Source of the DNA: Patescibacteria group bacterium
GTDB lineage: Bacteria > Patescibacteriota > Minisyncoccia > UBA6257 > 1-14-0-10-40-38
Direction: 5' to 3'
NCBI GenBank assembly: GCA_038064975.1
Contig: JBBTRX010000001.1
Span: 336 to 64,335, forward strand
Length of the DNA stretch: 64,000 nucleotides
The notes below the pieces were generated by a model. The model saw nothing but the letters and a program-made list of their open reading frames with translations, was not told the origin of the DNA and did no database searches. Of the stretch, positions 40,386 to 44,395 are shown piece by piece. Position numbers and translations under genes: made by a program. Every line of letters begins with the position of its first letter. Position 1 is the stretch's first letter.

Positions 40386-41381
40386 TTAATAATTCTGTAA
40401 CGAAAACTGCTCAATCTCTTGTTTTAATTTTTGAGTATTACCGTGATTCATGAGACCAAGATACGACAGCACAACTTCATTTTTACCTTTAGTATTTTCA
40501 AGATTTCTAAACATGCGTTTCTTCGTGGCAGATCGAAGCACTCTATGATCAGGGAAGTGTATCCATCCCAGAAAATCAATGCCTGATGCGAACGTCTGCA
40601 AAGAAACTTTATCGGGATGAAGCGTTAGTTTCAATTCCTCCAAAAGAAACGCATGTACGCTTCGGAGCGTGGTTTCAAGCCATGCTTTGTCCGCCGAGAG
40701 AATAACGAAATCATCCGCATAGCGAATATAGTATTTTGCCTTAATCTTGTGTTTCATAAACTGATCAAAAATGTTCATATAAATATTCACGAATAATTGC
40801 GAGGTGAGATTGCCAAGAGGAAGTCCGCGCCCCCGCTCCCCCATGTAGAAACTTCCCACGATTGCCGAGATAAGTCGCAGTATATTTTTTTCTGGAATGT
40901 GCACAAGCATAATCCGCATAAGAATTTCCTGATCGATAGACGCGAAGAATTTACGTATATCACATTTCAGTACCCATGCCGTTTGCATATGATTTTTGGA
41001 AACAATATGCGCATATGACCGGAATTTAGCAATCGCTTTATGCGTTCCTTTTCTCTTCCGACACGAATATGAATCAGCAATAAATCTCCGGTCAAAGAAT
41101 GGATAAAGTACGCGATAGATCGCGCGGTGAAGCAGGCGGTCGCGCACGCTCGCTTTATGGATATTTCTTGGCTTCGGATCAGAAATATTAAACGCCTCAT
41201 ATTCCGAGTGGCGATATATATGTGCGGCAAGATCGCCGTGCAACGCAAAAATATTACTCATAAGATTCAACTCAAATTTCTGCACATCCATGCGGTTACG
41301 CTTGCCGACGATAAATTCCTGCCAGGCGGCGAGGAGATTTTCAACGGAAATGATATGCTCGTAAGTATGGATAAATTTCAT
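40386..41381 (-). CDS. diversity-generating retroelement (DGR) reverse transcriptase
   Basis: RT motifs FASIDQEIL, LPLGNLTSQLFVNIYM (the IGxxxSQ-type signature diagnostic of DGR RTs, as opposed to QGxxxSP of group II introns), YADD, and GIDFLGW. The N-terminus is the conserved DGR-RT type (...ISVENLLAAWQEFIVGKRNRMDVQKFE...). Start trimmed to MKFIHTYE; the track's longer ORF begins at a GTG inside a poly-C tract. Confidence 0.85.
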   Translation of the reverse strand: MKFIHTYEHIISVENLLAAWQEFIVGKRNRMDVQKFELNLMSNIFALHGDLAAHIYRHSEYEAFNISDPKPRNIHKASVRDRLLHRAIYRVLYPFFDRRFIADSYSCRKRKGTHKAIAKFRSYAHIVSKNHMQTAWVLKCDIRKFFASIDQEILMRIMLVHIPEKNILRLISAIVGSFYMGERGRGLPLGNLTSQLFVNIYMNIFDQFMKHKIKAKYYIRYADDFVILSADKAWLETTLRSVHAFLLEELKLTLHPDKVSLQTFASGIDFLGWIHFPDHRVLRSATKKRMFRNLENTKGKNEVVLSYLGLMNHGNTQKLKQEIEQFSLQNY

Positions 41382-41394
41382 AATACAAGAGATC

Positions 41395-41772
41395 TTGGAA
41401 GTCCCCCCCCCCACGGCTTTACTGCCTGTTTTACAGCAAGTGAAAAGTGCTTACCTTCTCTGGTATGAATACTATCAGATACTTCCGAAACTCCATCGGC
41501 ATACGCTTGGTGAGCGGATTGATAGGTTATTTATAGAGATTATTGAAAACATATCATTCGCGAGTTTTCTCTCACGCGAAGAAAAACAACCCTACGTACG
41601 TGTAGCCATAAGGAAAGTTGATGCGTTAAAAATTCTTCTCATGGTACTTTGGGAAACAAAATCACTTGATAACAAAAAATATATTGCGGTTTCTCTAAAA
41701 ATAGAGGTGATAGGAAAAATGCTTGGAGGCTGGAATGGCCACCTTATAAAACAAAACTCTCCCAAGAAATAG
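41395..41772 (+). CDS. avd: Avd-like accessory variability determinant (four-helix-bundle, IVS-protein-like)
   Basis: 125-aa helical protein ending ...LKIEVIGKMLGGW, typical of the four-helix-bundle/Avd family. It lies between the RT and TR but diverges from the RT. Codons 3-6 span a C10 homopolymer. Confidence 0.55.
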   Translation: MEVPPPTALLPVLQQVKSAYLLWYEYYQILPKLHRHTLGERIDRLFIEIIENISFASFLSREEKQPYVRVAIRKVDALKILLMVLWETKSLDNKKYIAVSLKIEVIGKMLGGWNGHLIKQNSPKK

Positions 41773-41792
41773 GGAGAGAAGTGAAGAGAGTT

Positions 41793-41915
41793 GCACGCAG
41801 AGCCGCAGGATTCTGATCGTCCCAGTCGTTGTCGAGCCAGTTGTAGTTCCAGTTCCACCTGCCTTCGTTCCAGTACAGGTACCGGACATTCAGGTTGCCG
41901 TTCGAGTTGCGGTTG
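41793..41915 (-). repeat. DGR template repeat (TR)
   Basis: ~122 bp, ~88% identical to 42313..42434. Every difference is at a position where this copy has T on the plus strand, that is A on the coding (minus) strand. Confidence 0.8.
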
Positions 41916-42308
41916 CGTATGGAGCGCCTTCAGAGCCACTGCCCATTGTCCGCAAAATTTACGGATGCAGAGCTGTATCGTATCCGGCATCGAAAATGCC
42001 TTAGCGCCCCACACCAAGTTGTTTCACTTTTTTAAAAGCTGCGGAGACCACTCCATCCCTAACCGTGATCAAAGATGCTCTGGGCACATCCGTTGCTTGG
42101 CCTCGGTAGCGGGAAACCGTGATCGCCCGCGTATGCACCACTGCCATATTCATGATATCAAAAATTAAAAGACCCCGTGTCCCCAAGCTTTGGTAGCTTG
42201 AGGAACACGGGGCCGAGTGGAGGATCCCCCGAACGTTCTGATGGGAACGAGCGGGCAAAGTACTAAGGATCTAAAGAGTCCCTAGGTTCAGAGATCCAAG
42301 CTCATCAA

Positions 42309-42899
42309 CTAGGCACGCAGAGCCGCAGGATCCTGACCGTCCCAGCCGTCGTCGAGCCAGCGGCAGCTCCAGTCCCACCTGCCTCCGTCCCAGTACAGGT
42401 ACCGGACACCCAGGTTGCCGTTCGAGTGGCGGTAGATGGTTCCCCAGAAGAAGGTGTAGCGAGTGCGACCCTTGTCGTCCTGCTTCCAGTCTTCCGGGAT
42501 GAGGTACGGATGCGCGAGGAGGTAATCAAGGACGCAGGCATTCAATACCGGCTGCCCTTGAAGTTGCTTGCGAAGTTCCGTCCCTCGGATCGTCTTGCCT
42601 TCCTTCTGTGGGTCAGAGAGGAAGAGATTCACCTTCGCAGGATCCCATTTCCACTGACCACCCTTCTGGTGATCTTCGATCTTCCAGCCATCAGGGATCA
42701 TCGGGTCCACGTCACAGTCCACGACATGGTCCACAATCCTGATTTCGGCATTGCCGAGCTGGACTTGGAGCAACTGTTTGAAGAGATCGGGCCGTTCTGC
42801 GAGAGCGTTCATGAGCTCCGGAGTGTAACCCTGCCCTTCTGCGACGAGACAGACCTTGTGAGCCAACCCTACGATGGAAAACGCGGACTTCGCCGGCAT
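42309..42899 (-). CDS. DGR target (variable) protein, probable C-type-lectin-fold; VR occupies the last ~40 codons
   Basis: 196 aa. C-terminus is ...YTFFWGTIYRHSNGNLGVRYLYWDGGRWDWSCRWLDDGWDGQDPAALRA, a Trp/Gly-rich pattern typical of CLec-fold variable proteins. GC-rich relative to the flanks. Confidence 0.75.
   Translation of the reverse strand: MPAKSAFSIVGLAHKVCLVAEGQGYTPELMNALAERPDLFKQLLQVQLGNAEIRIVDHVVDCDVDPMIPDGWKIEDHQKGGQWKWDPAKVNLFLSDPQKEGKTIRGTELRKQLQGQPVLNACVLDYLLAHPYLIPEDWKQDDKGRTRYTFFWGTIYRHSNGNLGVRYLYWDGGRWDWSCRWLDDGWDGQDPAALRA
42313..42434 (-). repeat. DGR variable repeat (VR) at the 3' end of the target gene
   Basis: See the TR entry. There are 14-15 substitutions and all are at TR-adenine positions. 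The GC-rich 3' boundary ctgcggctctgcgtgc is shared with TR (IMH-like). Confidence 0.8.
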
Positions 42900-43117
42900 G
42901 GCGATTCTCCTTGTTTATGCGACTATCCTTTGTGGATATTATCGCGACTGCTAGCGGGCTTCCCAAACATCGGGATTTGCCATAGCAGAAAACCTTCGTA
43001 AAAAGCTTTCTGCTATGGCAAATAGCGTATTTTACTATCAAAGGGCTATGGGTACATTATACATCTGTTTTATTATTTTGTCAAACTGTGTTAAAAAGTC
43101 CAATGTAACGGTTATTT

Positions 43118-43183: not shown

Positions 43184-43768
43184 CTAAGAGGCAGTTACTT
43201 GTCCCTTCTTATCCACCTTCACGCGTTTCGTTTTTCCCCCACCCAAGCGAAGCTCTGAAGTGGTTTCGGAGGGTCTCACGAAGAAGTATTCTGATCCCTT
43301 GCTCACACTGACATGTTCCAAGCCAGCTACAGCTTCGGGCTCTTGAAGAATGCGCTCCTTGTTAATCTCCTCCGCCGCCGGACGGATAAATCTACGTAAT
43401 CCGGCTTCTTTCAATTCTGTAATCGCCTCTTCAGAAGTACCTTTGATCTTCACGCTCGGAGGATTCGTCCTGAACCCAACCATAGCGATCGCAAGATCAA
43501 CTGACTTCCGATCAGCCGGCAAAATTTCGTCTCTATGCATCTTTGCGTACGCGGCGAGACTGCGGGCATTCTGTTCAGCTTGTTGGGCAATTCTTTCAAT
43601 ATCCAATTCCGTTTTTACCATAAGCGCCGTGATCACTTCTTCACGCTTGGATTCTATGGCTTCAATATTGCGCAGTTCAGCGCAGAGCAGAGACAATGCC
43701 CTAGTAAACTCATGATTGTCTTGCAATTCAGGAATAGTAGGTTTCTTTTCGGCTTTCTTCTTTGCCAC
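43184..43768 (-). CDS. phage Mu Gam-like host-nuclease inhibitor / DNA end-binding protein
   Basis: RTNPPSVKIKGTSEEAITELKEAGLRRFIRPAAEEINKERILQEPEAVAGL closely parallels the Mu Gam core (RPPSVSIRGMDAVMETLERLGLQRFIRTKQEINKEAILLEPKAVAG). Confidence 0.7.
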   Translation of the reverse strand: MAKKKAEKKPTIPELQDNHEFTRALSLLCAELRNIEAIESKREEVITALMVKTELDIERIAQQAEQNARSLAAYAKMHRDEILPADRKSVDLAIAMVGFRTNPPSVKIKGTSEEAITELKEAGLRRFIRPAAEEINKERILQEPEAVAGLEHVSVSKGSEYFFVRPSETTSELRLGGGKTKRVKVDKKGQVTAS

Positions 43769-43939: not shown

Positions 43940-44395
43940 ATGCTCAGTGCAGAAGAAAGAGAAAACATTATTACTATCACTAATCTTGTTCGAACATTCG
44001 GTAAGCGACCAAGCAAAGAGAAAATCATGCCCTTGATTCCATCGTGCATTGCACCGATCGTAAGAAATATTACTAATATTGAATCCTGGAATGGCGCAAC
44101 GCTGGGGCGATATGTAATCATCGCGTGTTTATATGAAGATCCAACGCAGGCATTTTCATACATACTTAACGAGAGATTGAATACCTATGGGAGTCGTAGT
44201 GACATATTCCGACTTCTTGATGTTTCCAAGAATTTTGCAGGTGATAGATTTGAATCTTTACCACTCACACTTCTTACGACACTTGTTCAAGAAATCAAGA
44301 GGGATAGGGGCGTCGGAGAACCCCACGATGGACTGACGCAACGCCAAGCCATCAAGAGACGAATTCACGACGATGAAGAGGGTTTGCATTCGTAG
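43940..44395 (+). CDS. hypothetical protein
   Basis: 151-aa ORF with a good SD (AAAAGGAG) and a strong terminator (acggctcgc-tatacc-gcgagccgt + T8) at ~44420-44451. Confidence 0.45.
   Translation: MLSAEERENIITITNLVRTFGKRPSKEKIMPLIPSCIAPIVRNITNIESWNGATLGRYVIIACLYEDPTQAFSYILNERLNTYGSRSDIFRLLDVSKNFAGDRFESLPLTLLTTLVQEIKRDRGVGEPHDGLTQRQAIKRRIHDDEEGLHS

Follow-up and report, generated by a model that had tools for sequence, protein, structure and literature searches.

A complete diversity-generating retroelement in a Patescibacteria genome and the conserved structured RNA domain beside its template repeat

No natural protein diversifiers more powerful than diversity-generating retroelements (DGRs) are known to us, and the ultra-small, host-dependent Patescibacteria carry them with unusual frequency. 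In the following we examine a candidate element of this kind in a stretch of 64,000 nucleotides (nt) from a Patescibacteria group bacterium (assembly GCA_038064975.1, contig JBBTRX010000001.1, positions 336 to 64,335; this whole stretch is referred to as the window, and all positions are those of the window). The locus lies on a 66-kb contig with housekeeping genes on its flanks. A first-pass annotation, made from the letters of the DNA, had proposed that positions 40386-42899 hold a complete DGR, with a reverse transcriptase (RT), an accessory gene called avd, a template repeat (TR) together with a target gene bearing a variable repeat (VR). The question raised by this locus is whether the element is what it appears to be, whether it could still be at work, and how the RNA from which it would copy its template is organized.

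The repeat pair carries most of the answer to the first part. An independent repeat search recovered a direct repeat that aligns without gaps, its copies offset by 520 nt: 41793-41913 matches 42313-42433 over 121 nt with 88% identity. The TR (41793..41915) and the VR (42313..42435) both lie on the minus strand, which is the coding strand, and measure 123 nt in full; mismatch statistics were taken on the 121-nt core. The differences had been described as strictly adenine-specific after an alignment by hand, and a programmatic alignment with substitutions tabulated by TR base bears this out, as none falls off a template adenine: all 14 core mismatches lie where the TR reads T on the plus strand and hence A on the minus strand (12 A>G, 2 A>C), and the non-A positions of the core are identical throughout (89/89). 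The probability that 14 mismatches would all fall on the 32 A sites among 121 positions is P = 6.2e-10 (hypergeometric). Just outside the core, at 41914/42434, a 15th mismatch again concerns a template A (AAC->TAC, i.e. A>T), which makes 15/15 mismatches at template A in total, including 12 A>G; this is the odd VR position that had been misread as T on the plus strand and is actually A there. In the VR frame the substitutions are confined to codon positions 1 or 2, and the TR contains 11 AAY codons. The VR forms codons 156-196 of a 196-aa target open reading frame (ORF), so that its placement in the C-terminal ~40 codons stands as first described. At the boundary, examined for the type known as initiation of mutagenic homing (IMH), the last 18 nt of TR and VR (UCCUGCGGCUCUGCGUGC) are identical and adenine-free, and the flanks diverge beyond them. 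A scan of the window that disregarded the TR adenines returned 89/89 at the VR and no second VR or target copy; since no other site in the window exceeds 41/89, the VR is the only one there.

The same pattern recurs among relatives of the element. A one-genome-per-species scan yielded 370 relatives of the target, from which 80 loci were kept (L001-L080); almost all of these are titled Patescibacteria or Candidate Phyla Radiation (CPR) lineages or unclassified bacteria, and a few carry other labels. Over 35 cassettes (the window and those from L001-L078), 549 of 597 TR/VR differences fall on a template A, and the adenine-site changes comprise 362 A>G (66%), 111 A>T and 76 A>C. The skew towards A>G, likewise seen in the window (12/14 in the core), could stem from a misincorporation bias of the RT or from selection that favours Asp, Gly and Ser where codons derive from AAY. 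It would also be expected if adenines of one repeat copy had been deaminated or edited rather than miscopied by an error-prone RT. Deamination, however, cannot yield A>T or A>C, which together account for 34% of the changes across the family, and natural variants of a sister element (see below) show every kind of replacement; we therefore regard an origin by deamination as very unlikely indeed.

The RT gene (40386..41381, minus strand) encodes 331 aa, matches Pfam RVT_1 at 4.3e-24 and carries GLPLGNLTSQLF and YADD. Both motifs had been named in the first-pass annotation and both are present, the (I/L)GxxxSQ motif of DGR RTs as LGNLTSQ and the YxDD box as YADD. The nearest solved structure is the DGR RT of Bordetella phage BPP-1 (bRT; 8ub7_A, E 3.7e-40, 141 bits, RT residues 8-306); chain A of 8ub7-8ube, entries titled as Bordetella phage DGR ribonucleoprotein (RNP), is closest to our RT, with GLPLGNLTSQLFVNIY aligned to GIPIGSLTSQLFANVY of bRT and YADD to its YMDD. 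A different origin might be suspected from NCBIfam, where the top match is the group II intron RT/maturase model TIGR04416 (1.5e-42, 146 bits) and Drt3a and retron models match more weakly: the RT could then belong to a group II intron, a retron or a defence-associated (DRT/Abi) system, and the repeats could be an unrelated partial gene duplication. NCBIfam, however, does not model DGR RTs, and none of its models for group II, retron or DRT enzymes comes near its cut-off (146 bits against 300 for TIGR04416, 57 against 235 for the retron RT). Among solved structures, bRT reaches 141 bits, roughly double the 74 bits of the best group II intron RT (E 1.6e-19). The 331-aa protein has no maturase or endonuclease extension. 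In Rfam searches no group II intron family was found in the window at the gathering threshold, nor near the RT at E values up to 10, and no retron RNA family matched the window; unlike retron msr/msd, the RNA beside this RT carries a protein-coding-like template that matches the VR. As adenine-only mismatches (P 6e-10) moreover recur in ~35 related cassettes, an RT from one of these other systems is scarcely credible here.

Between RT and TR lies the accessory gene, for which an Avd-like four-helix-bundle product had been proposed from a start at 41395. By profile and by predicted fold the product is Avd: NCBIfam DivGenRetAVD (8.9e-15) and Pfam bAvd (1.2e-8) each recognize it at a score under the curated cut-off, and an AlphaFold model from a single sequence (pLDDT 77) shows four helices. 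With this model, the top Foldseek matches in the PDB (2rld, 2gsc, 4dwl and 8ub7 chains B-E; probability 1.00, TM ~0.7) all belong to the Avd/S23-IVP family, including the Avd of BPP-1 (4dwl). Comparison with the PDB by sequence, using the single sequence and a 14-sequence profile, gave no Avd match. The gene does not share the strand of the RT, TR and target but lies on the plus strand, and its start needs correction: the ORF is open from TTG 41395, but the public gene call, which carries PF22296, has 110 aa from GTG 41440, and the latter is most likely the start of avd (41440..41772).

The product of the target gene (42309..42899, minus strand) begins with three helices; behind this N-terminal segment comes a compact alpha/beta domain, with the VR at its end. 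The protein belongs to a family of more than 500 Patescibacteria proteins, all of them unannotated, and searches of the PDB by sequence, of Pfam and of NCBIfam gave no matches. Its C-terminal tail had been called C-lectin-like, which was too strong: the structural model is confident and weakly C-type-lectin-like, and Foldseek returned no significant match for it. Compared with the known C-type-lectin variable proteins of DGRs (Mtd 1yu0, TvpA 2y3c and FGE-type domains), the likeness of the modelled target to the lectin fold is weak.

On the minus strand the order in the window is target, VR, TR, avd (on the plus strand) and RT, and it is the same in every related cassette that has both genes. 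Where avd and RT occur within 5 kb, the layout is target/VR, ~320-400 nt, TR, ~20-40 nt, reversed avd, ~60 nt and RT; this arrangement and spacing recurs in ~35 genome loci and in dozens of metagenome loci. Of the CPR DGRs, 90% were reported to have the architecture B3, TR-(avd)-RT (Wu et al. 2018, PMC5758913), and CPR DGRs form a clade of their own (clade 2) with targets that lack recognisable domains (Roux et al. 2021, PMC8144416). The window holds the B3 core order of TR, reverse-strand avd and RT, and it agrees with the CPR DGRs in how these parts are ordered and oriented, the host group, adenine-specific mutagenesis, and a small target without a recognisable domain that carries the VR at its C-terminus; there is no essential difference between them. 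With RT, Avd, TR, VR and target all present, and with the VR placed 3'-terminally in the target ORF, the proposal of a complete element holds, and we are highly confident that it is a chromosomal DGR of the Patescibacteria (CPR) type. In the genomes scanned, about half of the target homologues (e.g. L002-L004, L006, L007, L009, L010) show neither TR nor avd nor RT in the 5 kb around them; some other DGR of the same genome may act on them from a distance, or they may have been orphaned and be diversified no longer.

The less expected part of the cassette is found directly 5' of the TR. Over ~230 nt in this position nucleotide conservation exceeds that of the proteins, and a comparison across 34 cassettes shows the 5' part of the DGR RNA to be a structured and conserved domain (helices H1-H9; 41916..42146, minus strand). 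RNAalifold predicts 63 pairs for this domain, 45 of them with compensatory changes. In a subsequent count of 72 pairs, which includes one long-range helix added by eye, 94.7% of cells are paired, compared with 42-47% when the partners are slid, 50 pairs are changed on both sides, and none of 500 shuffles reaches any of these measures (0/500). Many of the G-U pairs are invariant, which settles the RNA strand as the TR-sense one. A pairing of CCAG:CUGG between the 5' domain and the TR (helix 3) is without compensatory change and was not counted. Rfam contains no match to the RNA region around the TR.

R1, a covariance model built on the domain's 3' half, scores 88.8 bits in the window, itself one of its training sequences, and 60-117 bits in ~87 of 95 metagenome loci searched, which are independent of the training. 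With 20 nt of the domain as a seed, at least 120 metagenome contigs could be retrieved. Many of the metagenome loci have the same avd/RT pair at the same offsets together with a target of a different family, and again adenine-specific TR/VR pairs; since the RNA persists with avd and RT where the target family differs, it belongs to the RT/Avd clade and not to the target. Some loci deviate in other ways. A high-scoring RNA domain is present without detectable avd or RT downstream in L126 (3523-3627), L128, L163 and L103, the first of which has a serine-recombinase-like ORF of 565 aa near the domain, and L093 and L124 contain two copies of the domain each. Nothing points to a phage-borne form: a 19-mer of the domain gave four matches to viral contigs, but these are without RT, Avd, target or covariance-model match and were put down to chance.

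Two helices connect the domain with the ends of the TR. Helix H7, of 12 bp, pairs 42014-42003 with 41928-41917 and ends 2 nt from the TR 5' end. The long-range helix H6 joins 42029-42021 to UCUUCACUU at 41779..41787 (minus strand), 5 nt after the TR 3' end; across the 34 cassettes 90.8% of its cells are paired, with compensatory changes in 5 of 9 pairs. An unbiased column scan placed H6 joint top among the long-range pairings, level with an alternative partner at the 5' end (columns 96-101). The 5' strands of the two helices are 6 nt apart, that of H6 preceding that of H7, and the near-invariant UACUUGG between them runs into H7. The RNA also has two similar (A/G)UGAA segments (columns 96-103 and 267-273 of alignment A2, window ~42139-42133 and 42027-42021), each of which could pair with the UUCAYUU tail just 3' of the TR; such alternative pairings, one of which would engage a 5'-terminal segment that is otherwise part of H1, could represent a conformational switch.

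The likely limits of the RNA can be drawn from the same comparison. Upstream of the conserved RNA start lies a putative extended -10-like box (TGATATCAT; 42152..42160, minus strand), and most cassettes have TGnTAnAAT-like boxes in the same columns of the alignment. On the other side, a terminator scan marked a hairpin just 3' of the TR (UCUCCC/GGGAGA followed by GUUUUGUUUUA; 41747..41778, minus strand), which overlaps the stop and last codons of avd. This hairpin (helix 12, H12) is retained across the cassettes, and 4 of its 6 pairs show compensatory changes; after the TR come, in order, AACUC, the 3' strand of H6, the covarying hairpin and GUUUUGUUUU. Synonymous variation in avd is high throughout except in the last K-Q-N codons, antisense to the U-tract; because the synonymous sites are free elsewhere, the RNA constraint, and probably the RNA itself, ends at the U-tract. 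We infer from these sequence features that the hairpin and U-tract are probably the 3' end of the DGR RNA.

On this basis the element would work as follows. A minus-strand RNA of ~400 nt would be transcribed from its own promoter, from ~42146 to 41747, and would consist of the ~230-nt structured 5' domain, the 123-nt TR and a 45-nt tail ending in the hairpin and U-tract. The RT together with Avd would copy the TR into cDNA, misincorporating opposite template adenines, and the cDNA would replace the VR; in this way up to 21 codons (11 of them AAY) could be rewritten among the final 41 of the small, weakly lectin-like target protein. H6 and H7 would frame this synthesis, H6 in the role of the template:primer duplex of the phage element and H7, at the TR 5' end, in that of its 'cPRT Stop' duplex.

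This scheme can be compared with BPP-1 (mtd-avd-TR-brt). The DGR RNA of BPP-1, which runs from the avd 3' end through the TR into a spacer (Sp) of 140 nt, needs 20 nt upstream of the TR and the Sp downstream. Synthesis is primed by A56 of Sp, from a duplex with TR 118-124, and ends at the 'cPRT Stop', a duplex between avd and Sp situated just upstream of the TR; the primer and Stop strands are adjacent in Sp. Both elements have homologous RTs (E 3.7e-40) with the IGxxxSQ-type motif, the four-helix Avd fold, AAY codons in the TR, a GC-rich adenine-free 3' end of TR and VR, and possibly a lectin-like target domain, the likeness being weak in the window. The window element differs in being cellular, not phage-borne, and in having avd on the opposite strand after the TR. 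Its RNA is also laid out differently: only ~45 nt separate the TR from the terminator, whereas the 140-nt Sp of BPP-1 holds primer, Stop strand, thumb ring and bRT-binding stem-loop, and the conserved ~230-nt structure lies 5' of the TR, whereas the priming site and scaffold of BPP-1 lie 3' of it. We therefore propose that the RNA may be a circular permutation of the BPP-1 RNA, in which the RT/Avd-binding scaffold would stand 5' instead of 3' of the TR, because stop strand a, the TR, the stem-loop, the primer-like strand and stop strand b keep their cyclic order and the RNA ends are shifted.

A regulatory feature may reside in the divergent avd/RT intergenic region (41382..41439), which contains a C10 run at 41403-41412 (G10 in RT sense). 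A G/C homopolymer of 6-14 nt is present in all 26 extractable spacers (26/26), out of 27 cassettes with both genes, one of which yielded none. The intergenic region measures 50-90 nt in related cassettes, and the homopolymer length differs freely among relatives (L005-L078). On the plus strand, TTGGAA (41395-41400) is followed, after 17 nt that include the C10 run, by TTTACT (41418-41423), a possible avd promoter. To judge from its sequence the homopolymer resembles phase-variable promoters and might, through slipped-strand changes, turn the DGR machinery on and off. That both proposals are correct together, i.e. a clade-wide circularly permuted DGR RNA with priming and stop elements 5' of the TR and a phase-variation switch in the G/C homopolymer, is in our view a tentative proposition, with the chances somewhat against it.

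A third candidate element lies on the VR side. In BPP-1 a GC-rich cruciform is found near the IMH; in the window such a cruciform adjoining the 3' boundary of the VR is absent, and CTTNG repeats (42255..42308, minus strand), followed by a terminator, come after the VR and the stop codon instead. The copy in the window is weak. In the 95 nt after the VR, however, the 35 cassettes contain 137 CTTNG motifs where 20.6 are expected, and nine of the reverse-strand motif; the array is thus strand-specific, with a modal spacing of 7-8 nt. RNAalifold predicted no structure in the 150 nt after the VR; the region is an array of repeats and not a hairpin. The sequence 3' of the TR is unrelated to that 3' of the VR in the aligned cassettes, and CTTNG was not counted after the TR. 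The repeats are placed where the IMH-proximal cruciform of the phage would be, and are a candidate recognition array on the VR side.

Whether the element is still at work can be approached from its own state and from its relatives. Because all ORFs are intact and TR and VR have not drifted apart at non-adenine positions, the window element is probably active, or was so very recently. A sister element, whose target is 57% identical, is variable in nature: 11 natural variants are identical over residues 1-157 except for one L/F polymorphism at residue 100, and their differences are otherwise limited to the adenine-coded positions of the VR, where they are heavy and of every kind of replacement. 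The opposite view would be that the window contains a decayed or inactive remnant, in which the TR/VR differences are fossils of past activity, and it can draw on the origin of the locus in one assembly without same-strain contigs and on the half of the target homologues that lack TR, RT and avd within 5 kb, which means that orphaned copies exist in the family. Yet the catalytic motifs are present, identity at 89/89 non-A positions leaves no trace of drift, most RNA helices remain paired in the window copy, which reaches the above 88.8 bits against R1 (as a training sequence), and the sister element demonstrably varies. A remnant therefore appears improbable to us, and a functional or recently functional DGR remains the preferred reading.

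Several observations nevertheless weigh against parts of this reading. Activity at the locus itself is a matter of indirect argument, because the locus is on record from one assembly (ERZ1292627, Hainich groundwater well H51, 0.1 um fraction), the RT protein from the source contig only, and a same-strain search of metagenome contigs with a 24-mer beside the VR gave no match. The RNA folded as a single sequence is no more stable than shuffled sequence (z -0.68), for which reason the case for its structure is made by covariation. The primer duplex of the phage is inside the TR, whereas H6 falls outside the TR/VR homology by 5 nt, and the column scan found no 5'-domain partner for the TR 3' end itself that would form a phage-like primer duplex within the TR. 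The empty Foldseek search with the target model counts similarly against a lectin fold. Part of the RNA, furthermore, may already have been seen: Handa et al. reported stem-loops downstream of the TR and upstream:downstream duplexes in many DGRs, including those of CPR, and H12 and H6 may correspond to these elements. No 5' RNA domain, avd/RT homopolymer or post-VR CTTNG repeats are described in Wu 2018, Roux 2021 or the preprint of Handa et al., the works compared here; Paul et al. 2017 (Nat Microbiol) stands outside this comparison and may describe the 5' RNA.

The remaining features of the region concern the target transcript and the neighbouring genes. A perfect consensus promoter (TTGACA-17-TATAAT; 43056..43084, minus strand) is located 157 nt upstream of the target start codon, and 22 of 35 cassettes have a TTGACA-N16-18-TAnnnT box at 107-210 nt upstream of their target start. 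The long 5' untranslated region of the target contains a near-perfect inverted repeat of 22 bp (42975-43023, minus strand), which is shared with L078 only and, not being conserved among relatives, was dismissed as a feature of the cassette. At its other end the target gene has an intrinsic terminator (42160..42212, minus strand) with a hairpin at 42173-42212 followed by a T-run, of which the CGGGG stem end and the T-run are conserved in the alignments. The GC content of the target gene (0.56), VR (0.69) and RNA domain (0.54) is far above that of avd (0.38), RT (0.41) and the flanks (0.45), and the same contrast is seen in AT-rich relatives, e.g. L008 (0.51 and 0.63 vs 0.35). Between the target and gatB lie a phage Mu Gam-like gene (43184-43768, minus strand; PF07352, 5e-20) and an unannotated ORF of 151 aa (43940-44395, plus strand). 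Neither was accepted as part of the cassette, as they stand beside it in no related locus, and they are probably an unrelated mobile-element remnant.

Taken by itself, the element is a further case of a well-described kind, and the locus shows the dominant CPR DGR layout cleanly and completely; the anatomy of its RNA is the part that could be new. For this layout the comparison provides a ~400-nt RNA with strong covariation in its favour, a candidate primer helix and a candidate stop helix, together with a possible phase-variation switch and, on the VR side, an array that is a candidate for recognition. If the model of a permuted RNA is true, the RNP architecture of the Bordetella phage would be conserved in topology and not in gene order, and the Patescibacteria would offer a compact system of one RNA and two proteins for reconstitution and engineering. 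The target family, with its more than 500 unannotated members and a confident structural model, is a candidate for asking what these episymbionts need to vary.

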